Below are positions 1 to 31,399 of a DNA stretch of 64,000 bases, piece after piece; the stretch's first letter is position 1; every line of letters begins with the position of its first letter. The stretch is from Convolutriloba macropyga (Eukaryota): NCBI RefSeq assembly GCF_964194025.1, contig NC_134481.1:47988001-48052000 (forward strand), in the 5' to 3' direction. The translations under genes were made by a program, and so were the position numbers. Below the pieces are notes generated by a model. The model was not told where the DNA came from. It saw only the letters and a program-made list of their open reading frames with translations, and made no database searches.

Positions 1-496
1 CATTATGCTTAATTGTGTAAAGTAAAACTAAAGCATAGAAGATTACTTCTAAACACTATAAACAGCTGAAAACGACTTCAAGATTAGGAATATGGTCAAA
101 AAGCTAGAGAAAATCAAGCGACCGCGTGAAGATCAATTGGTGACAAGACAAAAAAACTTCCGACAATGACTTAGCCAAAATAAGTCCACCAATCGAAGAA
201 ACACCACGAGTCGATGACATCAAAAACTTGAAGCAGCAAAAATTCTGAACAATTAGAAGGCAACTGAAGTTCAATTAGATATCAAAGCACGAATTGATAT
301 TCATAATTTATAAATTTGAATATACAGATATGCAGCAAACTCTGAAATATCACGGCTACATTAGACATTTTTGGGCAGAAACTGGAAAGCATTTGGCACT
401 GAAAAAATTGTATTATAGCTCTTGTCACTTATTTTACCAAGTAAAGATAACCGACTACCGTTTGACTTTCCGCTCTCGAATGAAGCAATCGTAAAC

Positions 497-885: not shown

Positions 886-1334
886 TCGAAATTCGAAATA
901 TATGAGAAATGATTGCGACTCAATTTTGGGAGAAAACAAAATCTAATCAGAAAATAAATTAATGATTCAGAACTAAACAACGCTGAGCTCTGTTGCTAGC
1001 TCAATACTCATTCTTTGGATTTCAGTTAATGAAATACTTTGCGCATATTCAGTGTTAATATTGCAGTAAACCTACACCTAGTAGCGCGTCTAACTGAGTT
1101 CTTCAGCTGCAAGAATTTGAAAGCACATTGCTGTAATAGCTGCAAAAGAATAGACTTGCGTGCCGTATAATAGACACAGAAACATAAAATTGAAAAAGTT
1201 ATCGACGCCGACGAAATTAAAAAAGTTATCGACGCCGCCCAAAGAGCTATGTTGAAAAATATTCAGCGATCAATTAAAAAAGCTTGTTAAAATTCCTTGC
1301 GCGGAAGCCTTTCCATTAGGAACCTTTAGTACAC

Positions 1335-1369
1335 AGTTTAAAGTCAGGAACTCATCCTGACTTTAAACT
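1335..1369. repeat. Perfect 15-bp inverted repeat hairpin (duplicated at 3863-3897)
   Basis: agtttaaagtcagga-actca-tcctgactttaaact. Confidence 0.9.
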
Positions 1370-12179: not shown

Positions 12180-15100
12180 TGTAACAAATAATAATGCAGA
12201 CTTGAGAGCAAAAATCTAAGGGTTCCCCACACCCTCAGTTTTAGGAGTTACCAGTCTTAAGAGAAAATTAGTTTTGGCAATTAATACATTCACAATCGAT
12301 TCTCCAGGTACATGTCATTCACGTAGTAGTTTCTGTGAAAATCCAAGTACAGATCCAAAAGAAGAGATCCTGTGGTCCTCTTCAATATGAACTTCATTTT
12401 TGAAATAATCATAAAATACGTTTGCCAGGTTACAAGTTCGCATCCAAAAATCAGACTCGAATTTCTTTAGACAACAATTGGAGAAATGTTCACCAGCATG
12501 GCTCTCAAGTTAGACTAATACCTCTAATACGCAAAATTAAGACCGCGTACAGTTCCGTTGTCGACGTTACGAGAACTATGGCAAAAGGCTAAACAAAAAA
12601 CAATAGTAGTAGTAATAAAATCTTCGGGCTTTTTCCCGTGGGGTATCAATCCCCGTGTTCATCAGTCCATTTCAATTTATCTTTTTCCAGTTGTTACATG
12701 TTCCATATTTGCGCACTATTCGCCAGGTGCACCTGTTCAGTTGATTGAAATTGTGTGAAGTATTCCCAGTAAATGTTGGTGATTGTTTGCTTATTGAGTA
12801 CTTCGCCGTAGTTTCTGTATACGCGGGAGACAATTTTATAAAAGAAGCTTTGTTTGATGGAAGAAGTTTTCATCCGCTTTTGCATGCCTATTAAGACGTG
12901 TTCTACGGCTTACCTTCTTTAGGGTACTGCTGGAACTGTCTTATGGTTGTCTCAAGAATAATAGTTAATCTTAAGGCTTACCTGACTAACTAAAGTTCTA
13001 TTCCTCTAGTCTGTTACTCTTCTATCTGAGCTTCAGTAGACGGTGCACGGGCCCCAATGCTACGGTCTAACGTTTATCTCAATACAAAACAAGAGCGGAG
13101 TAGAGAGAGAGAAATATACTTTATTATTATATCAGGATGGTAACTGGTACTGACTAAATAACTTTCTCTTCTGCTGAGAGAGGGTAGATGGGTAAACACA
13201 TAGAGGGAAAGAAGGATAAAATAATATATTATTTTTATCCAATCAGAAAAGAGTATTTCAGTCTTTCTGAATAAAGTCTTTCAAAATATTAAATATTCCT
13301 TTTTGGAAGTCATATCTGACTCCATCTTTCCGGGGTTTAGAGTTGTTTTGAAAGTCTTCCAATAGAATATAGTAGAATATTGTTTATTAATTTCTCTGTA
13401 ATCTCTCTGAAGGATTTTCTTTCTTTTTGGTTGTGTTGCTTGAAGACCGGCTTGTCTGTGAGTCGAATCCGAAACATCGGTTACCCAAAGAGCAAAGAGT
13501 GAACATCAACAACCACAAAAGTATCTATTCCACCACCACACTATCCAGTGGACGGAGATCCTTCTGGGTAGGCCCGTCGTTGATGTTGTAGGTGTCCTGA
13601 TGTCCGGCGTCGACTTACCTGGTTTGCTTGGTTTTGTTAGCTGTTAGGTGTTAAGAATCGTTTTTAGATTCACTACATGTTCTAATACGTAGTATCCCTT
13701 CCGGTTGGAAAGAAAATCGAAAGAAGTATGTTATGTTTTGTTGTTTTAATTGTTAGAGAGTGACATAAAGGAGAGTATGTCAACGAAATGGCGAATAACG
13801 TGTTTGGTTTTAGTGACATGGGATTCGTCGGCCATGCTGATTGGTAATGTTGTTATAGCAATTGAACATGTATTAATTAATGCTCCTGCTTGAAATCATG
13901 AGTTACTGAATGGTATTAGTTCTTACAATTGTTTTGTCATACTTCACTGAGGAAACATTTTCCGTATCTGTAAGATTTGAAAATGCTGCTTAGCGCTTTG
14001 TTATATTTTTACATCTACCTGCCAGTCTCTTATGAATTTGTTTAAAGGCTTATAGATCTCGCTTATAGTAGTTTGTAATGGGTATGCCCACAGATGACAA
14101 GTTCTTAGTCCCAATCAACAGTTATTTATTTAATTACATAAATTAAATTAACGTCTCTGTCTGCGCGCTTATAAGTCAAAATCAGTGTACCCAAAGGTCT
14201 GAGTACTACCCATTATGTGAGTTGTTACGATATAAAAGATTATTTTGTTAGCTGTTACTATAATCAACATAGTTTGGTGTTTACATGTGTTGCATGTAGT
14301 CCGTTCATGATGTCTTAATATTGCATGTGAAAATTTCGATTTGAAGGAAAATTCTGTTCTTTTTTGTTTTTAATCTGACTGTTTCGTATATGTTACTCTA
14401 TGTTAAATTTATAGTTTGTCATAAACAATAAATTTGTAATGTACCTTGGGTATGGTAGACTGTAAATTATCCCAAAGAATTCATTATGTTATGATCTGTT
14501 TTATGAGATATTCTCATGTCCTATAGTATTGTGTTACTCAGTGTTGATAACATGGCTTATGAGTCATTTATTAAAATGTTATACACAGTATGCATGTGCA
14601 ATAGTTTATTTGTTCTGTTTTTATTTGTTCTGATTTTATTTTATTTGCCTATTTGCTTTATTTACAAAATTGCATGTGTGTTGCATATAACTAACTATGG
14701 GAAAATCTTTGCATATTTACATATACAGTATTATAAAGTAGGTTGAGTTTGTATCTAAAAAAAAATAAAAACTTGTTTTTGGCTTTAAACTTTTTATTTC
14801 AAAACTGATGAACATTGAGTATCAGAAATGGGTATGAGGAATAACATATGAATAACATATGATAGGTATGTTCCATAATCAGGGGGTAAGATTCAGAATC
14901 ATGAGTTTACAAATTGGAAGAATTTGTTTGAAATGATAAAGATAAAGAGTTACAAACATATGCAAAGATTACAAACATGGTTTGGCGATGTTACAGTTTG
15001 TTCGTTAATTACGAAGACATTGAATTGTTACTTGTTACACTGGACGTTACTATAGCTTCTGCGTTTGTTTCGGGTGATTACTCCTTTCACAGTAGTGATT

Positions 15101-15278
15101 ATATTCTTTCAAGAAGTATTCGTCCTTTGAGAGATAATATCCAAGTAAGTTGACGATTTCCTTTAAGGGGGTTTCTGTTATTGATGCTTGTAAGGCATTG
15201 CAAATTTCTCTTTCTGTGTCTTGAATTTTTCGTTCGTTATTAAAGTTTAGGCGGTTTGTAATTGCCTTATTAGTTACA
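12180..15278 (-). repeat. Candidate 3' LTR, ~3.1 kb
   Basis: Ends form an 11/12 inverted repeat: minus-strand start TGTAACTAATAA (15278) and end TTATTTGTTACA (12180). Preceded by a short purine tract CAGGGAG (15285-15279). Left boundary cuts a LINE fossil. The second LTR is not in the window. Confidence 0.65.
13120..13246 (-). promoter_or_regulatory. Putative LTR promoter / R region (CCAAT box, AT palindrome, Inr, polyA signal)
   Basis: ccaatcag 13239-13246; near-perfect palindrome ggataaaataatatattatttttatcc 13214-13240; Inr-like TCAGT 13153-13149; AATAAA 13125-13120 followed by a CT/GT-rich tract. Confidence 0.5.
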
Positions 15279-16693
15279 CTCCCTGTGAGGTGATATACAT
15301 GGTACTCCTCACAAGGTTCGATCGCTTCCAGAGGTATCATGAGCGGTCGCTCTGGTGCGTCCTTTGGCTGGAAGACGTAGTAGTTTTTAATTGGATCAAA
15401 GTTTCTCAATGTTCCAATAGTGTACTCCCATTTTAATTTGTAGCTATAATTGAGGAAGTATGGTGATGTCAGTTGGTCATTGATATGAACGTAGCTTTTA
15501 GATTCTGAATTTTGTTTGTCTCTAAGGAATGTATAATATATCAGATTGTGAATTAATTTCGTCTCGTGAACTCTATAATTGTTGCTTTGAACGTCCTTTG
15601 GTGTAGGGTGGAGGAAGTTAAAACTCAGTTGGAAAATCTGGTGTTGCTGTGTAAAGGCGCTGTATGCGGATAGATCTTGAGAGGCTTTTGCCACTAAAAG
15701 ATCAAAGTTACAGTTTACTGGTAATCGAAATTCATAGTCGTAGTCGTACAGGAAACGTTCTGTGAGACTGTAGAATTGTTTTAGCTTAGGGTATTGAGAC
15801 TGGTGTATCTTGTCTCTACCCATATTTTTTGTGCTTCTTTTTACGGTATTTGTGTTTTCCGACGGGAGTGGCGGAAAAAATTCTGACACACGATCTTTCA
15901 GCGTGTGTAAAGGTGCCATAAAGAAGTTATAGGATCGAGAATCGAATGGCATATCTGCCCAATTTCGGTACGAGAGGAGTGGGTTGTAGTTCATTCCGTG
16001 AGGGTTACTAAGATTTTTTGGATCCTTGTTTTGGAACCAAATCGTTTCCATGACCGTCTCGGTCGGGGTCTGTTCGTTCGTTGATTGATGAAAGAACGAT
16101 TTTCTGTTATTAGAGCGGGGTGTCACCGCATATGGAAATCTTAAATTGTTAGTGGTAGGCATTGTTGTTCTTGCGAATAAACGTTGTCTAACATTGTTCT
16201 GTGTTTGTGGTTGATCAATTACGTAGTTGTCTGATGGTGGGGGTGGACGTACTGGCGGGGGGTAATTCGGTAGGGGTGGTGACATATATGTGTCACTACT
16301 GTTATAATTATAATTTTGTCGTGGTCTTGTGTTTTGATAGCTATGTGTAGCTATATTTGTTCCTTGTTCCGATATATTGTTAATATTATTGTTACCAGTA
16401 TCAAAAGATTGCAGATTTCGTCGATTACCAAATCTGTTTTGTATCTTTCGGGCTATGTCTTGTGGTGTCTGCACAATGTGTGTTTCGTTTTCCAGTTCGA
16501 CTCTGAGTGTTTTGATATTCTCGTCATTTGTGATCATATTTGTTTCAGTTTGAGTCCCACAGTCAGATGCACAGTCCCGAATAGTCCCGGGGCTGGATCT
16601 GCCTGACTCACAACTCAACTCTCCTTCTTCCACTTCGTAGGAAAATGGCGAGTCGGATTTGTATGGCGAGTCGTACTCCATGTTAGATGCCAT
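15050..16693 (-). CDS. Intact 547-aa accessory protein of unknown function, downstream of env
   Basis: Long uninterrupted ORF in AT-rich DNA. Disordered Pro/Ser/Asn-rich N-terminal half and aromatic-rich, globular-looking C-terminal half. Branch point TACTAAT (16725-16719) plus ttttag acceptor 9 nt upstream of the ATG. Confidence 0.85.
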   Translation of the reverse strand: MASNMEYDSPYKSDSPFSYEVEEGELSCESGRSSPGTIRDCASDCGTQTETNMITNDENIKTLRVELENETHIVQTPQDIARKIQNRFGNRRNLQSFDTGNNNINNISEQGTNIATHSYQNTRPRQNYNYNSSDTYMSPPLPNYPPPVRPPPPSDNYVIDQPQTQNNVRQRLFARTTMPTTNNLRFPYAVTPRSNNRKSFFHQSTNEQTPTETVMETIWFQNKDPKNLSNPHGMNYNPLLSYRNWADMPFDSRSYNFFMAPLHTLKDRVSEFFPPLPSENTNTVKRSTKNMGRDKIHQSQYPKLKQFYSLTERFLYDYDYEFRLPVNCNFDLLVAKASQDLSAYSAFTQQHQIFQLSFNFLHPTPKDVQSNNYRVHETKLIHNLIYYTFLRDKQNSESKSYVHINDQLTSPYFLNYSYKLKWEYTIGTLRNFDPIKNYYVFQPKDAPERPLMIPLEAIEPCEEYHVYHLTGSVTNKAITNRLNFNNERKIQDTEREICNALQASITETPLKEIVNLLGYYLSKDEYFLKEYNHYCERSNHPKQTQKL

Positions 16694-17018
16694 AGTTGAA
16701 TGCTAAAACTCAAATATGATTAGTATAATCTGTATTATATCTTCGATTTAGTATATGTTTGTGATAATAAAAGTTGTTATACGTTGTTCTAATTATAAGT
16801 TGTTGGAATTATATGTTTTGTTAATTATGTGTTTGTTATAATAACAATTGTTATACATTCTGATGTCGTTTTTGTGAAACTAGTTTATAAGTAGTTTGTT
16901 TTAGTCTTATTGTTCCTTATGAATGAATAAAAATCAAAAAATGGTATGGTAAAAAATTTGGCAAGTAATGGCGGGTGATTAGGTAATGTTAGTTGTTACT
17001 AAATGGAATTGTTTGTTT

Positions 17019-20000
17019 TTAGATTTCGTATGTATCAGCCGAATGGGTATCATAATATGTGACTTCATTCGTATGTGGCTGATCATTTTTAAGAATATCT
17101 AGGCTGTAGCTACGATTCTGCATTTTGTTATTTGCTAGTTTTAATTGGTTGAAATCTATTGGTGGCGGGTTCTGAATTTCTAAAAGTCTGGGAGTTGGTA
17201 TTAGTTTATGTTGATTATGTTGATTATTTGATGGTTGAGGAATTTCATATTGTGTCTGTTGTGTTATAGGTGATTCGTATGAATAGGGTTTAATCTGTAT
17301 GTGCGATTGTTCTATATTAGGTGCGCTTGGAGTTGGTATTGGGATTGATACAGGTGGGAGACTACTCAAGCGTTGGTACGCTGGAGGCGGTGTTATAAGT
17401 TGTGGTGGTATTGGTGGTAGTGGTTGGGTTTTGTTTTCATTTATTGTTGTTAATGTTTCCATTTTGAATTGTTCTGTTTTGTGTTTTCTTTCTGGTAGTG
17501 GTGGTGCTTGTTTCTTTGTTGGTGATTCTAATGTACGTAATTGTAGACCATGTTCTGTCCTACGTATAGTAGTGTTATAGTGTTTGTAGTTCGTATCTAC
17601 ATAATGTTCTGTTGGTTTATCTCTACGCGTTAATGTTGGTATTTCTGTTGAATGTCGTCTGAAATGTTGAATATGTATTCGTGAAGTATTATGTCCTTTA
17701 TTGTAATGTGAATTGTTATCATCATTACTATTATCATTATTATTGTCGTAATCATCTTCTTGTATTTGTGCAACTAGTTGGGTTAGTGTTTGTGAGAATA
17801 TTCCGAATATTCCTGTTAGGAGTATTTTTGTTATGCTTGCTTGTTTCCCAATCGCTTTGTGTATTGCAAAAGCGTTGTAAAATTTTATGATTAGGTTTGT
17901 TACAAATAATATCATGCTCATCATCGCATAGATGATAGCCATCTTTTCAAGTATGTACCATGGCCAACCAAAGATAGATAATATCTGATCTTTCAGCCAT
18001 GCTGCATCGAAAATTTCTTTCCAGTTTACACTTGGTTGATCAATCTGGAAGTTATATCCGTTTATATTTAAGTCCTTTAACCATTTAAGTGAATGTTCAT
18101 AATTTTTGTATGTTTGTAGTAATCCTAATTGTTCTAATTCTAGTAGTTTTTGTGCGTTAGCAGATTGTGCTTCTTGAAGCGGTTTTTCGCGGTCTCTCAT
18201 ATATTCGTGTAGTAAATCTCTTTTTCGTTCCTGTATTAATTGTTCCTTGCTGAAGATTCCACTTTCAATGAGGCTTGCTTTGCTGAACATGTTATCAAGT
18301 ACTATTTCTTCTGGTGATATTGTTTCTAATATTGTTTCTACTTTTATTGGATATGGTGTCAATCTGTATCTTACTGTTCCTTCTGTGTCTATTGAAATTA
18401 GTTGATCGAAATTACTATGTGAACATGGAACCGTTTTCGCCCAAAGGTAAGTTTGTCGTGTTAGTTGGTGTACATATTGTACTCTATTTTTGTATAGTAT
18501 TGGTATCTTGTCGTAACATTCACGTGTTTGTGGTACGTATAGTGGTGAAGATTTCTTTGCACATTTGTACATTTTCATCACATTAACTCCTTCTTGTTTC
18601 ACAAATATGGATCTATCTCCTGTAAGGATGTATCCTAATAGTGGTGTATTCTTTTGTACTTGTGTTAGAGCCAACTGTCGAATATTGCGAGTTTGTTCGC
18701 ATATCTGTGAATAGAATTCTATTGCCTGAAGACTAATGCGTGAATATATATTACTCATATAGAGGTCCATTTTCATTTGTAGATGTGTGTTCTCGTTTAC
18801 AAAACGATAATAATAATTTTGATGTTCCTCGTCTTCATATCTTGTGTATGCATTTGACATAATTTGTTGTGGTTTGATTTTTATAAATTTTTCTTCTTCA
18901 AATTTGTCTTCTTTTCTTGTTACTTTAAGTCCTGTATGCATGTCAAAACCATATTCGTATATTATATAAATATCATCGTATTCTGTTTTATGAAGTGGTT
19001 GTGGTGATCCTTATTCTCGTTCAACCAATGGGTAGATTTCAAATCTTGTTGCTATTGATGATGTATCATTATATTTTACTTTTTGATGTACATCTGGTTT
19101 TTGTACTGATGACCATTCCGCGTTTGTTTCTATCCAATACCGTTCCTGATACTTAACCATATATGCATCAAACCTAATAAGTTCAAATAGTTGGCAATGT
19201 GTTTGAGGTTCCCAAATGATTGTTGCTTTTGTAAATGGTGTTGGTAAACATTCTCCCTTGTGGAGATCACATGGTAGTTTTGTTCCCATATATGATATGT
19301 CTTTTGTATCAAGATTTAGTATTAACGAGACTTCTTTTATCTCTAGAGTCCAGTCTAAAATATCAATTCTATTTTGTTTTTTGACGCCTGATAGGCAGTT
19401 TGATTGTGCATTTTTGATTTCATTCGGTACCCACATTGGATTTGTATAATCATATACCAATCTTCCATATGGTGGTACCATTGGAGTGTCTATTCTGAAT
19501 TTTATATTTCCTTGTACGTTTTCTAGTCTCTTTTGTAATGGTGGGTTTGATAAGTAATTGAACGATATGTTATGCCTTGTTGGCTTGTATTTTGTATTTT
19601 TAAGAACGTTAATTCTGGCGAGTTCGTTACGAACTTCGTCTGGGTCTAGGATTTTCGTTCTTCGTGCATCTGATACGTAATAGCTTGGTCTGTTTGCTCT
19701 AATGTAATGAGTGTGTTGTGAACACCATTCTACTTTTTCTTTGATTGTTCCTGTAACAGCATATGCTTTAATTTCTACAGCTTGTGCTTTTGATAGTAAT
19801 TGGACTTCTGTTTTAGTCATTTCTAAGTCTAATGGTTTAAATTTACATGTGCTGATTTTGTTCAGTTCGTAGTATTTTACGTTTGTTATTTCTTCTGCAT
19901 CGCAGTCGTAGTGTTCGATAAAAATGTCTTGAGGTCCGACTGCTGATCCATTAATATTTTGTCCTTTCAATTCAACGTAATCTTCTTGTGTCTGTCGTTT

Positions 20001-20451
20001 ATTTCTTTTATTATTTAGTTGGAATTTTTCCAAAATACTGTCTGTTAATTGTTCTGTAGAAATTCCAATTTCGTGTCCATTTATCTATGGCTATTTCCCA
20101 CATTTGTTCGTAATCTGTACTATTCGTTAATTCCTTTAAGTCTGGTGAAGTGTACTTCGATGGTAATTTATATATTTCCATATCAAATGTTGTTGTATTA
20201 TCTAATACATGATCTATTAACGTTTTAAAATTATCTTGATCAGTTCCATTTATGTTATTTGTGTTTATTTTGTTTTTCTTTTGTAAGCGTTCCATATGTT
20301 TTTCCATACGCTCTTGTACATGTTCTTGAATTTGTTCTCTAATATTTTGTTTTGTTTTATATTTTGATCTTATTTCAGTGTCTATTTTCATATAGATAAA
20401 TAATGTTATTAGTAATAATATTAGTATGAGAGATTTTAATTGAAGCGGCAT
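17019..20451 (-). pseudogene. env: Envelope glycoprotein (chuvirus G-like), ~1143 aa, disrupted by one frameshift (~20085-20035) and one in-frame TAA (19013-19011)
   Basis: Joins ORFs 20011-20451, 19011-20033 and 17019-18941. N-terminal hydrophobic LILILLLITLFI; furin site KRNKR (~19995-20009); Cys/aromatic pattern IEHYDC..C..VQLL..WCSQHTH, CDLHKGEC..IIWEPQTHC, FYSQICEQ..KMYKC..ECYDKIPILYKN..VPCS; C-terminal TM WPWYILEKMAIIYAMMSMILFVTNLII. Confidence 0.85.
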
Positions 20452-21890
20452 GTGTATGATAGTCCGGTGTGTGGATTATAGAATGTTGCAAATCCTAAAG
20501 TTTGTTTTGTGTATCGATCGAATTTGTAGATGAAATCAATGCAAACAAATGGTGCTGGTATCGTTGTTGTTACAGTAGATGGTGTTGTCGCGTGGAAAGG
20601 ATGGTTGTATATGGTGTCGTATTTTATTGTAGTATTGAATTTTAGTTCTAGTGATGGTGTTGCTAGAACTTCAAGTGCTGAGTTTCGTTGGCGATGTGTT
20701 AAGTTTAAGGTATTTGTAAGTCTATTTCTTGACCAATTTGTGAGAGTATCTCCAAGATTAGTTGGTCCGTATAGTGGTGGAGGTGGATTCCAGGTTTTAT
20801 GATCTAATGGGAAAAGATATGTATGATCATTAGTTCTACTTAAAGTAGGTGGATTTGGGTTGAGTACGGGTGTTGCTCTAGTTCTTCCAGGGTGTGTAGA
20901 TGATAATCTTATTTCTGGTATAAATGAAGTAGGTGATAATGCTCTATGTTGCGGTGGTTGTAGAGAATTTGCTATTTCTATTCGTGGTACGCTAATAGAT
21001 GTATTTGTCAATGAGGATGTTCTTGGTGTTCTTTGTGGTGTTGAACTTGTACTTGCTGATTGTTGTGGTGATGTTGCTGACCAAAGTGAGCTATTTGGTG
21101 ATTGTATTGGTTGTACACGGAAGTGTTCTTGTACAAAATTGAAATCTTGTCTTTGTTGTGTTGTTGGCGGTAAAAATGGGTTAGCTCTAAGTTCTGATGA
21201 TGTGGGTGTTGGTATAGTATGCACACTTGATTGGCTTGGTGACGCGATACTAAAGTTTGATAGTGTTGGTGTACCTATTCGAGTTGGTGTTTCTGTTCGT
21301 TCTGCTTCTAAAGGTCTTATTATGTTTGATTCTATATCCGTTGATCCGTATGATACTAATGTAGAGTCTTGTGTAGGAAAAGATAATGATGCTCTACGTC
21401 TACCTCTTAAAAGGTGTCGTGTATCTGTTCTTGCTCGTCTTACTGTATATGGGTTTTCGTTTTCGGGGTTTGTTTCTTCTATTTCTGGCGATGTGGGTAT
21501 ATTTGTTAAGTCTGTTACTTCGTTATGATGAGGTCTTTCTGGGTGATTGTTACTATTGTTATTATTATTTGATGAAGCAATTTTTGCTGTTTTTAAATAA
21601 TTTCAGGCTCCAGAGCCTGGTCCAGGTGGTGGATGTGGTATGAACGGTGGGGCTAGTATAACTACTGGTATTAATTCTTGTTCTGGTTGGTGTGTTTGAG
21701 CTCCTAGGTTTGTAATCCAAATTTCATTGGTTGTGAGTCTAATATTGAGTTGATATATCACAATGTTACCATGTAATGGGGATGTGTCGGGGAATCCAAT
21801 TTGGAGGTAGAACTTTTGTGTATGTAGTGTATGATATATCGATTCTTCAATGTCTGGGTTGGTATCAATTTTTATGGATTTATAAAGTAT
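20436..21890 (-). pseudogene. ~485-codon Ser/Thr/Pro-rich accessory ORF with one internal TGA (21605-21603); overlaps the env start
   Basis: The frame of ORF 20436-21224 stays open upstream to 21890 apart from a single TGA (GSGA*NYLK). No ATG is present at its start. Confidence 0.65.
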
Positions 21891-22028
21891 TCAATTAGTC
21901 CTAAGCACGTACGTACGAAGAAGTATATTATAATTGCAATTTTTTTAAATTTAAATATTTCTAGTTCGACAATATCTATGTTTGTTTTGCATATATGATA
22001 AATATCGGAGTGAGTTTCATGCATCGAT

Positions 22029-22325
22029 TTATTGTACTGGTGGGCTTGCATATACCACTCGTCGGTTGCGTAAAACTTCGCTTATTGTTACAATAGCTAA
22101 ATATGCCGATACTACTACAATGCAAGGTACTAAGAGTATTGTTAGGAAGAATATTACTTTAGATAATATAAAGTAGATTGCGATTAAAGATTCGTTGAAA
22201 TCTATTTTTGAAACTGATAAATAAACTACAACTTTGTTAGTAATTACGTAAGTGTGAGGTGTAATGCTGCACTGCGAAGTGACAGTTATTTGCTCAATTG
22301 TAACTGACACTAAACCGTGCCGCAC
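22029..22325 (-). CDS. Putative small membrane protein (accessory)
   Basis: 98-aa ORF co-oriented with the element; long hydrophobic stretch LIAIYFILSKVIFFLTILLVPCIVVVSAYLAIVTI followed by basic RNRR; starts at GTG. Confidence 0.4.
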   Translation of the reverse strand: MRHGLVSVTIEQITVTSQCSITPHTYVITNKVVVYLSVSKIDFNESLIAIYFILSKVIFFLTILLVPCIVVVSAYLAIVTISEVLRNRRVVYASPPVQ

Positions 22326-22439
22326 TACAGATATTATTATACTGTATTTATCTGTAGATTACTATGACAATTACTGGTATCATATTTGAAAGTTTGTGTG
22401 GCAATATATTTCTTAAAATGTTTCTCTTTGGTTTTGTTT

Positions 22440-22913
22440 TTAAGACGTGCTTTTATCGTCTATGAGGGTTATAGCGTCCTTTTTACACACAACTATAAAA
22501 ACTGTTTTTAGTTTGTTAAGGTCAATACATTGGTCTGTTTGAATCTGTTGTTTCAGTAAGTTATACTCTGTGATTGTTTCGTTACAAACGGTTATTTGTT
22601 TTAGTAATTCAAAATGTTTTTCTCCCCAGAATAGTTTTACTTCGTGTCCGCTTTCTGTTTTTCCTTCAATAATAAATAAACAATCTTTATCCGAGAATTG
22701 ACAAAGTGTTGTTCGTATACTATCGTTATCAAAATGAATGTGATTACCAAAAGTGTAATCTATATTTGCAAAATCTTCTCTTTGGACTTGTATTTTTATA
22801 CAAAACTGTTTCGTATTCAAAGATTTGAAAAATTCTGACACTTTTATCATTGGTGGTTCTTCATCACTGTGGTGACTGTAGTGATGAATTAGTCTTTGGT
22901 AGAAGAAGTTCAA
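22440..22913 (-). CDS. Putative 157-aa accessory protein of unknown function
   Basis: Co-oriented ORF with globular protein-like composition; the annotated start is TTG, with an internal Met in PPMIKV. Confidence 0.55.
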   Translation of the reverse strand: MNFFYQRLIHHYSHHSDEEPPMIKVSEFFKSLNTKQFCIKIQVQREDFANIDYTFGNHIHFDNDSIRTTLCQFSDKDCLFIIEGKTESGHEVKLFWGEKHFELLKQITVCNETITEYNLLKQQIQTDQCIDLNKLKTVFIVVCKKDAITLIDDKSTS

Positions 22914-23994
22914 ATAGTTTAATGAATATTTAAATGGATTCAGCTTACCTTGTGTTTGTTGAAATGTTGAATGAAAAGGATAAATGAACGACTTGCGACA
23001 AATATGGAAAAAGTTGTGAAAGAAGTTATGAAATTATTCAAAACTTGTTTAGTTATTGAGGAATTTGAATTTCTCTTTTAAGATAGAATATTTTCAGTCT
23101 TAAGACTAAATTTTGTTTGTGATTTAGAGTTTTCAGCTTAGCTGAGTTTTTTCACAATTTTTTGAGGTTTTTTAAACAAATTTAACGGTTGTTGTTTTTG
23201 CGAAGCAAAATTAGAATTGTGATTTTTACTTTCCTTTCGAAGGCTCTCTACAATGTTGGTGACATTTTCATATCTTCCGTTTTTCATATTTTGGATTTTA
23301 AGTTGTCAATTTTAGTAATTACTGGGTCCAATTATGGTGTTAGTTTCCTCGTTTGATGAATTGGACTTTTCTGTAATTGTTCCGATGCTCTTTGTTCTCG
23401 AGGTTTTTGTTTTCCTTGTAATTGGTATGTTGACATTTGTTTGATGGTGTGATGGTATGCTTTCAGCATGGTATGTTTAGTCTTTCCTGGTGCCAATTAT
23501 ATGGTATCAATAGAGTTGGTCTGTTGTTTTTATGTTCATAATGCCATATCTATTGTTCTGAAGTAATCTCTGTCATCATTAGAAAGGCTCGTTAACGATG
23601 GTTAGTGGCGCTTGCGGGTGGTGGTTAGTGGTGCCAGTTATCATCAGCTTGGTACTTTTTGTTCCAATTAGCTGTATGGTATATTTGTTGTATACCTTTG
23701 ATGGTGCAATTCTGCAGATGGTGCAACTCTGCAAATTGTTAATTATTGACGTAGATGAAATGTTTATTTCATCTGCTAATGGTCTTGGTAAGACCTGTCT
23801 TGTTTAATCACCGTTGTGTTAGGTGAAAATGTTAATTGGTTTACCCTTTGTATTTTGTTACTAATTGCGTCTGCATGGAGACTGTTTGTCTCTGACGTGT
23901 GTCGTTTAAGATATCTTTGTTCATTATTGATGGTGTCAATTTGGTACTTTCTTCTCTTTAATTGGTTTTAGTTTTAGTTTGGGTTTCTAAAGAT

Positions 23995-24141
23995 AACGTC
24001 CGTTTCGTTACTAATGATGTCTGTGACATTTCAGTTATTGACGTCCGTTAAATAATAACGTCCGTATTTTCACTAATGAGTTGTATAATGTCCGCATTTT
24101 GCACTAATGAGTTGAATAGCGTCCGTTTTTCACTAATGAGG
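23995..24141. promoter_or_regulatory. Array of four CGTCCG-N(6-8)-ACTAATGA units, ~30-bp period; enhancer-like
   Basis: acgtccgtttcgttactaatga; acgtccgtattttcactaatgag; atgtccgcattttgcactaatgag; gcgtccgtttttcactaatgag; one extra acgtccgt at ~24041. Confidence 0.55.
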
Positions 24142-25983: not shown

Positions 25984-28104
25984 CTAATAAAGTTGGGGAA
26001 TTGTTATTTTCTTCTTTCGAAGATTGTAATTATGAGATTGTGTGATCCCATCAGGTGGTGTATATTGTTTTGTTGGTGTTTGTGTATTGGGTTGTTTTAG
26101 CGTTGGGATTTCTTTCGTTAATAAATAATTTTGTAATTCTAATTTAATATGTTTTTCTTTCGGAAAGTATGGTACAATATGATTTCTATGTAGTGTAATG
26201 TGTTTATTAGTGTTGTCCTTCAGTATGTAGGTTGTTTCTGTAGGCTTATCAATAATTAAATATGGTCCCGTTTTTAGAGGTATTAATTTCTTTGATACTC
26301 CGTCAATCTGTTGTTGATTTGTGATCAAGACGAATGTGTTTTTATCAAGTGGTTTCGCCGTTCTGAACCGTGAATTTAATTCATCAGTTAACTTTTTTCT
26401 ATTTCTTAATATCGTTGTTATTGTTTGATATGTATCATTATAATGTTTTTCTTTATCAAGAAACCATTTTGCGAATGTTCCGTTTTGTAGTTTTGCTATT
26501 TTGGGGTGACTGAATTGTTTATCTAAGTGAGTATGAGTGGGTTGTGTATTGCATGCGCTTGTTCTTGTTGGGTTACAGTTTCCCATCTCGTCTGTAGTTG
26601 TTCCAAGTTTAATCTTTGTTGGTTTTCTAGGTTTTTGATTGAAAACTACTTCATAAGGTGACATGCCTAATCTTGTCTGGTATTGGGTATTATATGCATA
26701 CGGAAAGAATTTTGCTTTTCTAGACCAATTTTGGTACTTTTCGTTGAGTAATGTCCTTATAAATTGTCCAATTATTCTATTAGTTCCTTCTACTAATCCG
26801 TTTGTCCAAGGTGCATATGTTGTGCTTGGTTTAAATTTGATTTCGAAATAATTACAAAGATGTGTTAATTCTGTATTTATATATTCCGATCCGTTATCGG
26901 AACGAATTTCTTCGGGTAGTCCGAATTTCATAAACCAATGTTCAAATAATGCTGTAACTGCGTAGTGTGCATTGTTCTGAGGCGCACACATTATTGTTAC
27001 GTAATGCGAGAATGCATCTACTATCACAAAAATAAAATTGTTTCCTTCAGATGTAGGATGTATTGGACCTTTTGTGTCTATCATAATCATTTCATTAAAG
27101 TATGTTTTTGTAGGTGCTAATTGTTCTTGTTTACTTTTCGTTTTTGTGTTAGCGAAAACTTTGTTTGTTTGACATTGTATGCAGTCTGCGATCAGTATCT
27201 TGATCCAAGTTGTTAAGTTTGGGAAATAATATTTTTCCATTATGTTTCTTTTTGTTTTTTCAAGTCCCGTGTGACCAACTGTATCTACGCAATGGTTTTC
27301 GTAGAAAACACATAGTAGTAATGTTAGTGGCAAACAGATTCTTTGTATTGTTTGTTTCTTTATTCGGATAATCATTTTCATTATGTTTGTTTTTTCGTCA
27401 ATAGTAATTGACTTAAACTTTCTGTAATATGCGAATAGACCTTTATTTCCACGTATGTCCATTGTTACTGAATGTGGTTTATTGTTATTTTTCTTCCACA
27501 TTTTGACTTTATGAAGTACTGGGTCTATTATTTGTGTTTCCTTAATCAATTCTTCTGTTACTTTTGTTTTTTCATCATAGAAAATATCTGTTATTTTTGC
27601 ATGTTCGAAATTATGTTCTTGTTTCACATTGTTGATTAATCTAAGATAATCATCGTCGTGATGGGTTATGTATGGTCCTTTTTGGTTTTTCTCTATGATT
27701 AAGTCATCTTTTTCAATGATTGGTGATTGCCAGTTTTTTGTTTTTGGTTTGTATTTCGGTACTAAATTTGTTTTTGTTTCAGTATTATATTTTTCATATG
27801 ATATCGGATGGTATTCGTTTTTATCAATATTAATTTCAAAGTAGTTGTTATGTATATTGGCTAGAACTGGATAATGTGTTGTGTCTTTGTTATCGTTGTT
27901 TGTATTGTTACAAATACTGTATTTACATTCTAGATTATTTGCAAATGGTGATTTCGCAAAGAAGAATTTTATGTTTTCAGGTATTTCCACTGTAATATCA
28001 CGTGTTTTTGTAAAATGTTCTTCATCTATTGTTCTACTTAGTAGGTCTGGTAAAGCTAAGTTTTTTCCTTCAGTCCATATGATATGTAAGTTAGGAAATT
28101 TCAT
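25984..28104 (-). CDS. pol: Gypsy pol, 3' part: end of RNase H, long spacer, integrase (HHCC, DDE core, GPY/F)
   Basis: GKNLALPDLLSR (RH end); H..GHTG..CIQC; MIDTKGP, IVDAFSHY, IRSDNGSEY, NGLVEGTNR; KTGPYLI..LHRNHIVPY; terminal YNLR. Confidence 0.95.
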   Translation of the reverse strand: MKFPNLHIIWTEGKNLALPDLLSRTIDEEHFTKTRDITVEIPENIKFFFAKSPFANNLECKYSICNNTNNDNKDTTHYPVLANIHNNYFEINIDKNEYHPISYEKYNTETKTNLVPKYKPKTKNWQSPIIEKDDLIIEKNQKGPYITHHDDDYLRLINNVKQEHNFEHAKITDIFYDEKTKVTEELIKETQIIDPVLHKVKMWKKNNNKPHSVTMDIRGNKGLFAYYRKFKSITIDEKTNIMKMIIRIKKQTIQRICLPLTLLLCVFYENHCVDTVGHTGLEKTKRNIMEKYYFPNLTTWIKILIADCIQCQTNKVFANTKTKSKQEQLAPTKTYFNEMIMIDTKGPIHPTSEGNNFIFVIVDAFSHYVTIMCAPQNNAHYAVTALFEHWFMKFGLPEEIRSDNGSEYINTELTHLCNYFEIKFKPSTTYAPWTNGLVEGTNRIIGQFIRTLLNEKYQNWSRKAKFFPYAYNTQYQTRLGMSPYEVVFNQKPRKPTKIKLGTTTDEMGNCNPTRTSACNTQPTHTHLDKQFSHPKIAKLQNGTFAKWFLDKEKHYNDTYQTITTILRNRKKLTDELNSRFRTAKPLDKNTFVLITNQQQIDGVSKKLIPLKTGPYLIIDKPTETTYILKDNTNKHITLHRNHIVPYFPKEKHIKLELQNYLLTKEIPTLKQPNTQTPTKQYTPPDGITQSHNYNLRKKKITIPQLY

Positions 28105-30020
28105 ATTAGTATCAATTGAAATCTGTAAACTCTATGGTTTGGTTTATTCTTTTGTATAAAGAGGTAAATGATTAGCTTGTGGTCTGTAAATAAAATTATT
28201 GGGTGATTTGAACCTGTTAATAAGAATTCGTATTCTGTGAGTGCGAAAATGATCGCTGAACATTCTCTAATTAGTGTAGATAATCTCATTTCAATCGGTG
28301 TGAAAAGTCTAGAATTTGCTGAAATTAGTCGCATTTTCTTTTCAGTTGGATGTTGTTGCAGTAGTGCTGCTCCAATGCTTGTGTTGGATGCATCTGTTAT
28401 AATGTAAAATGGTTTTGTTGTATCCGGTATTGTTAATTCTAGGTTGTGTGTTATTGTCTTTTTCATTTGTTCAAATATTTTTTGATGTTCTTTAGTCCAT
28501 TTGAAATCATTTTCTTTGTGTAGTAGATTGTATAATGGTTGTAATATTGGTTGCATTCCGTATACGTATTTGGCTAAAAAATTTATTGTTCCTAGGTATC
28601 GTTGTAAAGCTTTCATACTTGTTGGAGGTTCCAGTTTTTGGAATCCATCAATTCGTGATGTAAGTGGTTTTACTTTTTTGTCTTCGATGATATGACCTAA
28701 AAATTTTACTTTCTTTAACATGAAGTATGTTTTATCAGGTGCTGCTTTTAAGTTCTCTTTAAGCAGTACTTTGTGATATTCAATCAATGTCTCGAACATT
28801 TGTTCGTAAGAGTTTGTTTGAATAAAAATATCATCCACATAGGTGATGACTGTTCCTTTTCTAATTAAAGGGTAAAGGAAATGTGTTAAAATTGAAGCGA
28901 ATGCTGCTGGTCCGATTGATATTCCGTAAAATAATCTTTTGAAACAATATTGTTCGTTTCCAATTGTGAAATGTGTATATCGCATTGATTCTTCATCTAA
29001 TGGTATTTGGTTATATGCGCTATTAAGGTCTGCAGTTGTGAATATTGTTCCGTTTATTCTTGTTAAAGCTACATCAACTGGTTCAATTGGCCAGTTACAC
29101 TTTGATTCATCTATCATGCTGTTCAAATATCTTGCATCTATTACAATCTTTAAAGATTCTCCTTTTCGTAGTATTATTACCGGGTTTGTGAATGTGTTTC
29201 CTGTTGATAGTTGTTCTTTATTCACGGGTGCGATTATGTCATATTTTTTAAGAACATCTAACAGTTTTTGTATCCGTTCTCGAAGATGTATAGGTACTTT
29301 ACTTATTCTTTGTTTTTTGAATATTGCATCTTTTTTCATTGGTAAATTCAATTTTACTTTCGTTTTTCCTACGTCAAATTTTGTTGTTGCGTAGACTTGT
29401 TTATAGTCTAATATGATTTTTACTACTTTTTCAAATTCTTCTTGTGTTAAGTGTGAGTGTTGAAAATCAAACATTGTTATGAATTCTTTCTCTTGTTCTG
29501 AATATTTGTTAATGTTAAACTTGCATTTGAAGTTTGGTTTTCTTTCAAATGTTGCAACTTGTTCAATAGTTTCGTTTTCTTTGATGTTTAATATTTCTTC
29601 AATATCGTTTTCATTTTCGTATGTCAGATGGTACAGTGCTTGGAATAAGTCGATAGAGTTTGTGTAGTATAGTTCGTTATCTTGTTTTTTGAAGTTAATA
29701 TTCCTGTTCATGAAACCAATGAGTCCTGTATTTATTGTTATTCGATGTCTGTTTTTGTTGATCAATAGTATATCCATAAAGTATTCTTCGTCTGAGGAAA
29801 AATCTTTTATATCTGTAAATGATACGTTATGATATTTGTTTATTGGTTCGAAATAGAATTTCGATTTCTGTATTGTTTTATCATTTGAATGTTTCATTTG
29901 TTTAAATATTGGTATTGGAAATGTTATGCTTTTTTGTTGATTTGGTTCTATATAGATTGTTTCTCTATTAATGATTGTGTATAATCGGGAGTAGTAAGGA
30001 TAACCTTTAGTACTATTCAT
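28101..30020 (-). CDS. pol: Gypsy pol, 5' part: reverse transcriptase and RNase H (truncated by gap; frameshifted relative to the integrase ORF)
   Basis: NPVIILRK, IVIDARYLN, TADLNSAYNQI, RLFYGISIGPAAF, YVDD (28841-28830), FLGHII, ITDASN..GAALLQ, RECSAIIFAL, FTDHK. Confidence 0.96.
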   Translation of the reverse strand: MNSTKGYPYYSRLYTIINRETIYIEPNQQKSITFPIPIFKQMKHSNDKTIQKSKFYFEPINKYHNVSFTDIKDFSSDEEYFMDILLINKNRHRITINTGLIGFMNRNINFKKQDNELYYTNSIDLFQALYHLTYENENDIEEILNIKENETIEQVATFERKPNFKCKFNINKYSEQEKEFITMFDFQHSHLTQEEFEKVVKIILDYKQVYATTKFDVGKTKVKLNLPMKKDAIFKKQRISKVPIHLRERIQKLLDVLKKYDIIAPVNKEQLSTGNTFTNPVIILRKGESLKIVIDARYLNSMIDESKCNWPIEPVDVALTRINGTIFTTADLNSAYNQIPLDEESMRYTHFTIGNEQYCFKRLFYGISIGPAAFASILTHFLYPLIRKGTVITYVDDIFIQTNSYEQMFETLIEYHKVLLKENLKAAPDKTYFMLKKVKFLGHIIEDKKVKPLTSRIDGFQKLEPPTSMKALQRYLGTINFLAKYVYGMQPILQPLYNLLHKENDFKWTKEHQKIFEQMKKTITHNLELTIPDTTKPFYIITDASNTSIGAALLQQHPTEKKMRLISANSRLFTPIEMRLSTLIRECSAIIFALTEYEFLLTGSNHPIILFTDHKLIIYLFIQKNKPNHRVYRFQLILI

Positions 30021-30023
30021 GTA

Positions 30024-30223
30024 NNNNNNNNNNNNNNNNNNNNNNNNNNNNNNNNNNNNNNNNNNNNNNNNNNNNNNNNNNNNNNNNNNNNNNNNNNNNN
30101 NNNNNNNNNNNNNNNNNNNNNNNNNNNNNNNNNNNNNNNNNNNNNNNNNNNNNNNNNNNNNNNNNNNNNNNNNNNNNNNNNNNNNNNNNNNNNNNNNNNN
30201 NNNNNNNNNNNNNNNNNNNNNNN
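30024..30223. other. Assembly gap separating the Gypsy pol from unrelated sequence (other gaps at 37213-37570, 53678-53828, 55520-55674)
   Basis: Runs of N. Confidence 1.
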
Positions 30224-31399
30224 TGCTGATTTACTATGTAAGGACACGTGCTCTGTATCTGGGGGCTGCCAAACGTACGGGGGGTGGGAGAATAAACGGA
30301 AATCAGGGATGTCCAATAAACCAAGAGTATATATTTGGGTTGTGCAAATAGACTTGCTATGTAAGGCTAGGGGAAGAGCAATTACAGAAAAGAGCCGATA
30401 AGTGTAGGTTGAAAATTAATTCTATGCGTTTCAAAAACAACTACCATTTCCTTAACGGTGAATTTATTAAATCAGATACAGCAAAGCAGCGCGTGTTTTT
30501 TTCAAACCCCAACAGGTTTTGCAATCTTTTAGCACCTTACTTGCGTGTCAGTGACAAGTATATGAAAACTGAATATGACAAACCTTGGGGTTCAGGGTCA
30601 AAAATTTAGATTAAAAATAAATTTATTACCTGATTTATGGCTGACGCAAGGTTGATAGGTGTCAAGAAAACAACAAAGTCATTTGAGCAGACGAAGCTCG
30701 GGCTTCGAGCAGTAATAAAAAACTGACATAACATTGTTGTCTTGGTTAATTTACCACGGCGACGGAACCGATATTTGGCACTGACTAAAGAAAATTTTCA
30801 TTGACAGTAGACACCAATGGTGAACTGGCGGCTGCTATACGTGGACGTCATCCGGAAAATTATCTATCCTGTTTTGCCCAGCGCCATTTTGTTGGCACAC
30901 AACTCGTACACTTCCAAATGCGATAATCTAATAAATAAACTTGTTGTTTTGCACCTCTGTTCAGATTATCTGAAATTAAAACATCAAGACGAGATGGTTC
31001 AAATTAAAAAAAACTCTGCAACCAAAGAGGGCAAAAAATGACAGCTATCATCTTGTGGAGTATACTGAGCCAGTGGTTGATGGGAATGACTGAATCATCT
31101 GGACAAACATCGGGGAGCCCAAACTCATCCCTAAAACTTTTCCACGGGGCCCTTCTTATGTGGTGTCGATGTTGTCCAGGAAAGAAGCGTTGCTGTGCTG
31201 TAGAAACTTGTGTTTAGTCGTGGAGGCTGACAGCGGTGAGAAATACAGCCACAGGAAAAAAGTGAGTTTTTTGGTGTGGATAACGGGCCAGATGAGGATG
31301 TCTTTGCAAAGGGGATAAGTGTAGCTGGGAAGGCCGGTGTCCTAATCATTTCAAATCATGTCAGTATATGTCATCGCTTAATAAGTGGAAGTAAAATGC

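Follow-up and report, generated by a model that had tools for sequence, protein, structure and literature searches.

The window, a 64-kb stretch of DNA, carries on its minus strand a copy of an env-bearing Ty3/Gypsy element of 21.4 kb with the order gag-pol, ORF197, ORF388, env, and ORF547. The gag gene and the 5' LTR are absent from the window. The features present are:

25984..30230, minus strand, pol (RT, RNase H, integrase) with one frameshift
22440..23033, minus strand, ORF197, a further accessory frame, 136 aa from the first Met
20436..21602, minus strand, ORF388, Met-less and Pro/Ser/Thr-rich, whose C-terminal domain is conserved and whose frame overlaps the start of env
17019..20475, minus strand, env of the class III fusion type (PF24664, Monjiviricetes_fusion)
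16703..16725, minus strand, branch-point-like CTAAT and 3' splice-acceptor-like GTTTTAG, candidate exon start at 16702
15050..16693, minus strand, ORF547, accessory gene of 547 aa, the last gene of the element
16544..16564, minus strand, LC8-type motif DCGTQTE, residues 44-50, with D at -4 and E at +2
16235..16279, minus strand, proline-rich segment PPLPNYPPPVRPPPP, residues 139-153, in the low-complexity N-terminal arm
15464..15796, minus strand, first part of the core, residues ~300-410, mostly helical in models (low confidence)
15308..15463, minus strand, predicted SH3-like beta-barrel, residues ~411-462, Tudor/KOW/PWWP class (low confidence)
15089..15268, minus strand, C-terminal helical domain, residues ~476-535
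14755..14798, minus strand, conserved AATAAA with a U-rich tract behind it, putative internal poly(A) signal of the env/ORF547 mRNA
13325..13717, minus strand, conserved non-coding stretch before the purine tract, with donor-like CAG|GTAAGT at ~13618 and a candidate long hairpin
13325..13331, minus strand, polypurine tract GGAAAGA, directly before the 3' LTR
12892..13324, minus strand, 3' LTR of 433 bp with TG..TA ends

The element was assigned to Ty3/Gypsy on the gene order RT-RNase H-integrase, paired LTRs, a PBS-like site (TGGTGCG, directly after the 5' LTR copy), a polypurine tract, 4-bp target-site duplications flanking each of the six full copies, and an env gene that encodes a viral fusion protein. 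Among solved structures its RT is closest to that of Ty3 (E 7.6e-35 vs 3.7e-24 for foamy Pol). All six copies end in TG..TA and not in the usual TG..CA, a variant that does not affect superfamily membership. Troyka was rejected because its members, as described in PMC12440569, have CG..CG termini, a 3-bp target duplication, and no env, whereas this element has TG..TA ends, a 4-bp duplication, and env. The genome holds at least 140 copies, and the LTR pairs are identical at 429-434 of 433-435 columns; the family is, by comparison of its copies, young and abundant with recent multi-copy activity. PF24664 scored above its cut-off in both pieces of env, which is interrupted here by one frameshift and one in-frame stop whereas other copies have a single frame of ~1,160 codons. 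The preliminary description held that ORF547 is the only long open reading frame of the element free of lesions. This is true with respect to pol and env, which are broken, but ORF388 and ORF197 match their C1 and C6 counterparts in stop-to-stop length. ORF197 is 56% identical in the C13 lineage.

It had also been claimed that ORF547 runs into U3 across an LTR boundary at 15278, in the manner of HIV nef and foamy bel2, and that the purine tract is embedded in its LTGSVT codons. In each of the six full copies compared, 12892-13324, and nothing else of the region, recurs at the 5' end. The true LTR therefore starts 1.7 kb downstream of 15050, the outcome that the preliminary description itself had said would overturn it, and the positional analogy with nef and bel2 fails together with the overlap. 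The LTGSVT codons are plain coding sequence, with LEGSVT in their place in another subfamily. From the ORF547 stop to the LTR there are 1,725 nt in the window copy, and 1,623-1,904 nt in 19 of 20 more divergent loci (the remaining locus is rearranged). For the C13 and ~30%-identity lineages the distances are 1.66 kb and ~0.7 kb. A Nef/Bel2-like gene with its 3' end in U3 is suggested by features that mimic an LTR, namely, a purine run followed by TGTAAC at ~15280 and AATAAA at 14798, but given the duplicated segment and the size of the gap there is practically no chance that this is correct. The part that was first placed inside the LTR is the C-terminal helical domain, which has a pLDDT of 72-86 in model 2; the dN/dS of residues 471-547 is 0.04-0.15.

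The claim of an intact frame of 547 aa is borne out, the frame being open from 16702 to 15050 (550 codons stop to stop) with an ATG at 16693. A frame of 548 or more codons is open in 15 of the 20 best DNA matches to ORF547, dN/dS over the gene is 0.02-0.11, indicating strong purifying selection, and the protein is soluble, with a maximum 19-residue hydropathy of 0.52. Calling ORF547 an orphan was right in that no family match was found in Pfam, PHROGs, PDB sequences, and ESM Atlas, and wrong in that it has 127 relatives at E<=0.001 among 50%-identity representatives. All homologues found are in ENA proteins and in its own genome. This restricted distribution would fit a captured host gene or a non-functional open frame, but ORF547 lies behind env or pol-derived sequence in all extended loci (6 close, 5 of the ~30% lineage, one of which lacks env, and 1 of C13) and its dN/dS is far below 1, so that this explanation is most improbable and for its own genome is refuted. 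A host gene unlinked to element copies, which had been raised at the outset, is ruled out in every extended locus examined.

The branch-point-like TACTAAT (16725-16719) and the TTTTAG that ends at 16703, 9 nt before the ATG, are both present as reported earlier. Of 40 related loci 39 retain TTTTAG, and an acceptor-like site is also present in the 63%, 47%, and ~30%-identity lineages. The exact TACTAAT occurs only in the window copy, and the others have AACTAAT, GACTAAC, or ATAATC, the TAAY core being common. The spacing from the acceptor AG to the ATG is 1, 3, 4, 9, or 16 nt, and this variation does not preserve the reading phase, so that an upstream exon would probably be non-coding. The ~30% lineage has no in-frame ATG close behind the acceptor, so expression differs there. 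The LTR holds AATAAA (13125) and two donor-like AG|GTAAG sites (~12981 and ~12914), of which the first is kept in 18 of 20 divergent loci; a donor-like site is also found in the ~30% lineage. Thus, at the sequence level, ORF547 has the conserved acceptor and the upstream donor consensus of a spliced accessory gene. A further AATAAA lies 225-345 nt past the ORF547 stop in 18 of 20 divergent loci, followed by a U-rich tract in all 11 loci inspected, and is missing from one of the two copies of the ~30% lineage. With several candidate donors and acceptors, a Met-less ORF388, and this internal poly(A)-like signal, the element would have a retention and read-through problem to overcome in its full-length RNA. 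Comparison of the loci shows that ORF547 has a fixed position between env and the 3' LTR, no LTR overlap, a conserved acceptor-like site, and a history of purifying selection, and that its soluble product has a conserved core in addition to the low-complexity N-terminal arm. It is supported that ORF547 is an element-encoded, selected, soluble accessory protein, and by these comparisons it is a long-standing accessory gene of an env-bearing Ty3/Gypsy (Metaviridae-type) clade and a new accessory-protein family, with no name in the libraries searched, in a known kind of element.

The LC8-type motif DCGTQTE is present at residues 44-50 (16564-16544), as first noted. TQT occurs inside the first 70 aa in 120 of 120 close database relatives, which are near-identical copies and not independent. 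Its counterparts are TCSTQTD in the 63% lineage and DTAVQTS (D-x-x-VQT) in the 47% lineage, and no such motif was found in the N-termini of homologues P0153, P0162, and most of P0253-P0281. In a shuffle test bare TQT appeared in 17% and the fuller motif pattern in about 1%. LC8 is described as preferring D at -4, a large residue at -3, a small residue at -2, and E at +2, and many TQT peptides fail to bind it (PMC6607443). ORF547, a candidate partner, resembles known LC8 (DYNLL) partners in having a predicted anchor in a low-complexity region with the preferred residues at -4, -2, and +2, and differs in having Cys at -3 in place of the large residue. The host genome has a canonical intronless LC8 gene. 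A literature search on retrotransposons, LC8, and TQT gave no paper whose title or abstract opening concerns an element-encoded partner.

The proline-rich segment is likewise present at residues 139-153, and it is kept in the 72-100% subfamilies and the 63% lineage. Residues 1-60 are acidic (pI 4.05) and the Pro-rich arm comes next; in the full-length homologues compared the N-termini are acidic and Ser/Thr/Pro-rich. ORF547 also has ten SP/TP sites. This composition, a location after env like that of foamy tas, and a 31-bp tandem repeat (24054-24140) within the 3 kb between pol and ORF197 would suit a Tas/Tax-like transactivator acting on the LTR or on an internal promoter in that spacer. We consider it unlikely, for no DNA-binding fold was recognised, no Tas/Tax homology was found, and a scan of ORF547 for basic RNA-binding/NLS clusters gave none that was clear, the one match being KRSTK. 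The LPxY/PxxP motifs (LPNY, PxxP) are conserved, as is TQT, and rabies P is linked to LC8. A particle-associated or trafficking adaptor that works through LC8/dynein and through WW- or SH3-type motifs, whether in the transport of cores or RNA or in helping budding, would make use of both sets of motifs. In addition, env is of the class III type of negative-strand viruses, and the phosphoproteins of these viruses have been linked to LC8 (PMC8615749). Nevertheless, an adaptor also seems improbable: no viral P or M protein matched in BFVD at E<=0.001, the motif is missing from several lineages, and LC8 is mainly described in the literature consulted as a dimerising hub.

The last part of the conserved core (residues ~300-465) is modelled, at low confidence, as an SH3-like barrel at residues ~411-462, which supports the C-terminal beta-rich stretch that had been pointed out. 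Invariant residues in the core are F354, L356, F358, F360, L361, P363, D367, K379, H382, N405, and T409-S410, and those in the barrel are Y418, G427, R430, N431, D433, P434, R449, P450, and E456, the latter being chiefly Arg, Asp, Asn, Pro, and Gly and including a single aromatic. The whole-protein models are weak (mean pLDDT 49.5 and 58.9; pTM 0.38 and 0.33). In model 1 a five-stranded barrel forms, with a pLDDT of 64-71 and best Z scores of 8.1-7.0 (rmsd ~2 A over 49-64 residues), a range that the search tool labels a common arrangement; in model 2 it forms only in part, its first strand is missing, and the best Z is 3.9. The model 1 matches include PHF19 (Z 7.5), Shuguo PWWP (7.3), SGF29 (7.0), and SMN (6.7), and the tied matches include Spt5/NusG KOW domains, PWWP, and unrelated SH3-like folds.

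As Tudor, PWWP, and chromo-barrel domains fill the fold list, ORF547 might be a chromatin reader with a Royal-family (Tudor/PWWP-like) barrel, or a competitor for LC8 or piRNA factors, that shields the element from co-transcriptional silencing. In Drosophila, piRNA-guided silencing is reported to require LC8/Cut-up (PMC7861614), one Gypsy element with a Tudor domain has been described (PMC12477816), the family is young and has many copies, and in the C13 lineage ORF547 diverges faster (63% identical) than pol and env (79-88%). On the other hand, dN/dS indicates purifying and not positive selection, and because the barrel has only one invariant aromatic across five lineages, compared by eye with known Tudor cages, no methyl-lysine/methyl-arginine cage is evident. 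Anti-silencing is a possible but rather doubtful function and a close rival to the Rev/CERV-like reading that we prefer.

Our best reading, which we put forward tentatively, is that ORF547 is a spliced, LC8-dimerised regulator that would most likely favour full-length genomic RNA as Rev or CERV does. ORF547 would very likely be translated from a subgenomic RNA in which splicing joins 16702 to a non-coding leader, with the AG|GTAAG sites in the late part of the 5' LTR as the probable donors. The internal poly(A)-like signal near 14.8 kb may mark the 3' end of this RNA. Host LC8 would probably bind the TQT motif and clamp two arms into a dimer. The dimer could conceivably have the RNA of the element itself as its target, in the manner of Rev or Cer1 CERV, and would favour unspliced, read-through genomic RNA, either by export or by letting it evade splicing and the internal poly(A) site; the core and the SH3-like barrel would bind RNA or the host elongation/export machinery. 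The barrel invariants and the KOW domains among the tied fold matches speak for this reading. The weak structure of the candidate RNA target before the LTR (hairpin at 13325-13717, z -1.6, compensatory change in 1 of 74 pairs), the lack of a clear basic cluster, the weak models, and the absence of the motif from several lineages count against it, and sequence searches and the weak models gave no sequence or fold likeness to CERV, Rev, or other export factors.

The closest parallel is CERV of Cer1, a C. elegans Ty3/Gypsy element, a spliced accessory protein of 517 aa described as solving an export problem (PMC10309623). Both are accessory proteins of Gypsy-type elements of similar length (517 vs 547 aa), from RNA whose splicing was shown for CERV and is deduced here, and both evolve fast, have no homologues outside their clade, and carry phosphorylation-type SP/TP sites (S214 in CERV). 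CERV as described has exons in common with gag and is built of H, M, and G-protein-like domains with a Cys finger, whereas ORF547 is a single frame after env with a predicted SH3-like barrel and an LC8-type motif, and no homology between them was detected. Foamy virus tas/bel2 (Bet) and lentiviral nef/rev are likewise accessory genes between env and the 3' LTR. The element further resembles these viruses in its donor-like sites near the LTR poly(A) signal, where poly(A) control has been described (PMC3694450), but ORF547 has neither U3 overlap nor homology to their genes and the RT is Ty3-like. The 'ancient errantiviruses' (class III HSV/gB-type env, PMC13524379) and Oikopleura Tor (PMC4402516) share the gag-pol-env order, class III env, Ty3-like RT, and recent multi-copy activity; they are described as three-ORF elements, in contrast to the 21.4 kb, three extra frames, and TG..TA ends here, and the eLife main text on the former makes no mention of accessory or extra ORFs.

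Env-bearing Gypsy elements are usually described as simple, with three genes, and this clade keeps up to three more. Even between lineages that share only about 50% identity in RT, ORF547 keeps its position, which suggests regulation on a par with that of complex retroviruses. The clade could even be an invertebrate 'complex retrovirus' of independent origin within Ty3/Gypsy, with a class III env, ORF197, an ORF388 that may be matrix-like, and an LC8-dimerised KOW/Tudor-like regulator that either switches short spliced RNAs with an internal poly(A) end to full-length genomic RNA or disarms LC8-dependent piRNA silencing, a picture we regard as speculative and rather unlikely in its entirety. 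No element-encoded protein of this type, both LC8 partner and processivity or anti-silencing factor, was found in the literature searched. Interest is tempered by the fact that extra ORFs without an assigned function are common in LTR elements, by the error over the U3 overlap, and because we infer the role of ORF547. The family nevertheless offers handles, namely, the LC8 motif, the SH3-like barrel, the invariant residues, and the internal poly(A) signal, that make the export of unspliced RNA or piRNA evasion by an invertebrate retroelement testable. Gypsy-10_Ec32 of Ectocarpus also has an SH3-like reader domain, a Tudor that is C-terminal on an element protein (PMC12477816), whereas the ORF547 barrel, whose Tudor identity is not established, belongs to a free-standing gene after env. 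The extra ORFs described in plant LTR retrotransposons are similar in being conserved, often disordered, and Pro-rich (PMC11728184, PMC7264820).

The minus-strand frame 16702-15050 is open for 550 codons and encodes 547 amino acids from the ATG at 16693 (ORF547). The preliminary description gave correct positions for the TACTAAT..TTTTAG signal, the DCGTQTE motif at residues 44-50, the proline run at residues 139-153 and the beta-rich stretch.

Genes of the element in the window, in the order of transcription
upstream of ORF547, minus strand: pol with RT, RNase H and integrase
upstream of ORF547, minus strand: 3-kb spacer
23033-22440, minus strand: ORF197, upstream of ORF547
21602-20436, minus strand: ORF388, upstream of ORF547
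upstream of ORF547, minus strand: env, matching PF24664 (Monjiviricetes_fusion) above the cut-off in both pieces
16693-15050, minus strand: ORF547

Compared with solved structures, the RT of the element is closest to Ty3. The window copy has a frameshift in pol and a frameshift and a stop in env, and gag and the 5' LTR are absent from the window. ORF547 had been called the only long unbroken frame but this is not the case because ORF388 and ORF197 have the same lengths here as in other copies. ORF388 has 388 codons with no Met and overlaps the start of env, and its translation must need splicing or read-through. Its C-terminal domain is conserved in the distant lineage at 36-41%, its PPPPLY segment is of the PPxY type, and its placement directly before a class III env recalls that of a matrix gene. 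ORF197 has 136 amino acids from its first Met, 56% identity in the C13 lineage and a donor-like AAG/GTAAG just upstream at ~22949; it had no match in PHROGs and none in Pfam at E<=0.1. The C-terminal tail of env (17019-17400, minus strand) is very long and Pro-rich with a PPPAY motif, and a 31-bp tandem repeat of 2.9 copies at 24054-24140, in the spacer between pol and ORF197, is a possible internal promoter or enhancer.

The 3' end of ORF547 had been placed inside U3 of an LTR starting at 15278, and comparison of 5' and 3' LTRs refutes this. Searches of the C. macropyga genome gave 40 scored DNA matches of 667 candidates (identity 90-100%) and 140 scored protein matches of 1,686 candidates. 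In all six full copies that were compared, the sequence duplicated at the 5' end corresponds to 12892-13324 of the window and not to 15278 onward, and 4-bp target duplications flank the copy. The LTRs are 433-434 bp, start with TGGAG and end with GTCTTA, a PBS-like TGGTGCG lies directly after the 5' LTR copy, and the element is ~21.4 kb long. LTR pairs within one copy are identical in 429-434 of 433-435 columns and therefore the insertions are very recent. The gap between the stop of ORF547 and the LTR is 1,725 nt in the window copy. It measures 1,623-1,904 nt in 19 loci out of a set of 20 that are more divergent and were chosen by us in part for long open frames, 1.66 kb in the lineage with 63% identity and ~0.7 kb in the lineage with ~30% identity. 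ORF547 therefore does not overlap U3. The LTRs end in TG..TA and not TG..CA in the six full copies, and the LTR comparison also led us to reject an identity with Troyka, which has CG..CG termini, a 3-bp target duplication and no env.

The start of the LTR in the preliminary description was probably suggested by the AATAAA at 14798, which is followed by a U-rich tract. Such a hexamer lies 225-345 nt past the ORF547 stop in 18 of the 20 divergent loci and, of two copies from the ~30% lineage, only one keeps it after the stop; the one at 14798 is a candidate internal poly(A) signal. A T-rich "acceptor" at 14755 was rejected because its AG is not conserved, and we take it for a U-rich poly(A) element. 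Before the purine tract there is a conserved non-coding stretch of ~400 nt (13717-13325, minus strand) with a CAG/GTAAGT site that is often tandem-doubled and has no evident acceptor downstream, and in the ~30% lineage a similar donor precedes the LTR by ~420 nt. This site may bind U1 and control the choice of poly(A) site. We also rejected a small coding gene in 13325-13800, since no reading frame persists from one subfamily to another.

On sequence evidence, ORF547 is a real and old gene of its element clade. Among the 20 best DNA matches, 15 have an open frame and five a broken one. Pairwise dN/dS values are 0.10-0.11 for members of the close family and 0.02-0.05 between subfamilies where dS is measurable, dS being saturated against the 72% subfamily, and the part that had been put in the LTR is under the same constraint as the rest. 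That ORF547 belongs to the element is borne out by its homologues at 63% and ~30% identity in the same genome, which occupy the same slot between env and the LTR; the RTs of their elements are 88% and ~50% identical, respectively, to that of the window element, and one of five copies of the ~30% lineage is without env. In the 63% lineage ORF547 is more diverged than pol (86-88%), env (79-82%) and ORF388 (78%). A profile search of 1.84 billion representatives found 127 proteins at E<=0.001, and a second search found 43, three of them known from before. At a 45% identity threshold, 108 of 113 well-covered sequences fall in four groups and five are single, and among the matches listed all the sources are ENA entries. 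The homologue lineage P0162 had no match in the C. macropyga genome at E<=1e-20 and lineages P0156 and P0260 had matches of only 30-42% identity, and thus these three lineages probably come from other genomes. No related loci were found in viral contigs, nor in JGI metagenomes with P0260 as query, and a scan of 3,378 candidates for longer fused forms gave none, which is weak evidence.

The family is without a name in Pfam, PHROGs, PDB sequences and the ESM Atlas. Pfam gave nothing above the cut-off for ORF547 and nothing consistent over 58 aligned members; PHROGs gave nothing for ORF547 and, among seven proteins, one homologue with a marginal match (E 0.0099); PDB sequences gave no match to the protein and one to the profile (E 0.21); and two attempts on the ESM Atlas gave no usable match. 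Earlier reports describe extra ORFs in LTR elements (PMC11728184), Gypsy elements with class III env (PMC13524379; PMC4402516) and one Tudor-bearing Gypsy (PMC12477816). Among the papers listed in searches of openly accessible main texts, we found no account of the ORF547 family or of an element-encoded LC8 partner.

Conservation of acceptor-like and donor-like sites supports the view that ORF547 would be made from a spliced RNA. Of 40 loci, 39 retain the acceptor-like TTTTAG and, ~20 nt upstream of it, a TAAY core, and so do the 63%, 47% and ~30% lineages. The distance from the acceptor to the ATG is 1, 3, 4, 9 or 16 nt across loci, a spread that does not preserve phase and makes a non-coding upstream exon probable. 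The ~30% lineage has no in-frame ATG near the acceptor and coding conservation sets in ahead of the first Met, suggesting that in this lineage a coding exon lies upstream. Donor-like AG/GTAAG sites, at ~12981 and ~12914 in the window, lie late in the LTR, past its AATAAA; 18 of 20 loci retain the first of them, and the LTR of the ~30% lineage also has one. In foamy viruses an LTR donor controls poly(A) choice (PMC3694450). Four contig runs from one study over 12700-30000 have no bearing on splicing because their even low depth on the flank is like that of genomic DNA and 16702 is absent from the 15 joints listed, of 124.

To produce its unspliced RNA, the element has to get past several splice sites and an internal poly(A)-like signal. 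Among Gypsy elements, the nearest solution on record is that of Cer1, whose CERV is a 517-amino-acid protein made from spliced RNA and needed for export of genomic RNA (PMC10309623). On these two grounds we rank first, tentatively, a role of ORF547 as a Rev/CERV-like regulator of element RNA.

The protein has no transmembrane segment (highest 19-residue hydropathy 0.52). Its head is acidic (pI 4.05), the arm, which runs to about residue 215, is basic and rich in Asn and Pro, and the sequence contains ten SP/TP sites. A short beta-type motif at residues ~65-72 of the arm, with the variants LRVELE, LVVHVD, LRLYID, LHITID and VLYID, recurs across lineages (also in loci L069 and L087 and in P0162 and P0258), and resembles a PxIxIT docking motif. 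The TQT of ORF547 has D at -4, C at -3, G at -2 and E at +2. According to PMC6607443, LC8 binders prefer such residues at -4, -2 and +2 and a large residue at -3, and many TQT peptides fail to bind; ORF547 agrees with these preferences at -4, -2 and +2 and departs from them at -3. A bare TQT occurred in 17% of shuffles and the fuller pattern in 1%. All 120 close relatives retain TQT; these sequences are not independent. The motif is TCSTQTD at 63% identity, DTAVQTS at 47%, where the surrounding sequence has changed, and VCEMQTP or VCETQTP, a poorer fit to LC8, in the ~30% lineage. An LC8-type motif was not found in P0153, P0162 and most of P0253-P0281, of which six carry HTQTT. The host genome encodes a canonical LC8 at G000:C1:20514378-20514647, and in the Rev/CERV-like reading binding of LC8 would dimerise the arms of ORF547. 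LC8 is also essential for piRNA silencing in Drosophila (PMC7861614), which favours an anti-silencing role for ORF547, a reading that we rank second and consider rather unlikely.

Structure prediction and a Foldseek search, suggested in the preliminary description, gave an SH3-like barrel, weakly, and no match at E<=0.001 in the PDB (Foldseek) or BFVD. Confidence is low in both AlphaFold2 models, with a mean pLDDT of 49.5 and 58.9. In model 1, residues ~411-462 form a five-stranded SH3-like barrel.

Matches of the model 1 barrel
YfhH: Z 8.1, rmsd 1.9, 55 aligned
PHF19 Tudor: Z 7.5, rmsd 1.7, 53 aligned
a PWWP: Z 7.3, rmsd 2.3, 53 aligned
DSIF KOW6-7: Z 7.3, rmsd 1.6, 50 aligned

These scores are tied and within the range of common arrangements, and in model 2 the first strand of the barrel is lost and the best Z is only 3.9. 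A helical domain follows at residues ~476-535 (pLDDT 72-86). Twenty-seven core positions agree across five lineages; the invariant barrel positions are mostly Gly, Arg, Asn, Asp, Pro and Glu with one Tyr and, judged by eye against known cages, do not look like a methyl-reader cage. A HEPN or PD-(D/E)XK site in the core was dropped by eye because key residues are not common to the lineages. The Tudor-like folds among the barrel matches are a further point for anti-silencing. In the Rev/CERV-like reading, the core and barrel would act on element RNA or on host elongation or export factors, and a candidate target would be the conserved ~400 nt ahead of the purine tract, which only read-through RNA contains and whose structure support is weak. 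A transactivator and a trafficking adaptor are ranked after anti-silencing and both appear improbable. Sequence and fold searches found no homology of ORF547 to Rev/CERV, anti-silencing, transactivator or trafficking proteins and hence each proposed role is an analogy.

Loci L080 (G000:C12:44.01 Mb) and L077 (C2:43.24 Mb) are internally deleted copies of the distant lineage that are without integrase or env and keep the ORF547 homologue. In locus L023 (G000:C1:34263000-34266288) the gag region is unusually long, ~1,000 codons in the same frame as pol; it has a large N-terminal domain, and its C-terminal stretch is rich in Asn and Arg. Locus L072 (G000:C3:891822-894539), beside a distant-lineage element, has two long frames of 358 and 547 codons, the second with a P-loop-like GPQDAGKT motif. 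Outside the element, the window has segmental duplications with 1.6-2.8 kb spacing at 479-4648, 48913-50838, 52887-56768 and 57593-61956, and a 333-nt inverted repeat at 55990-56710.
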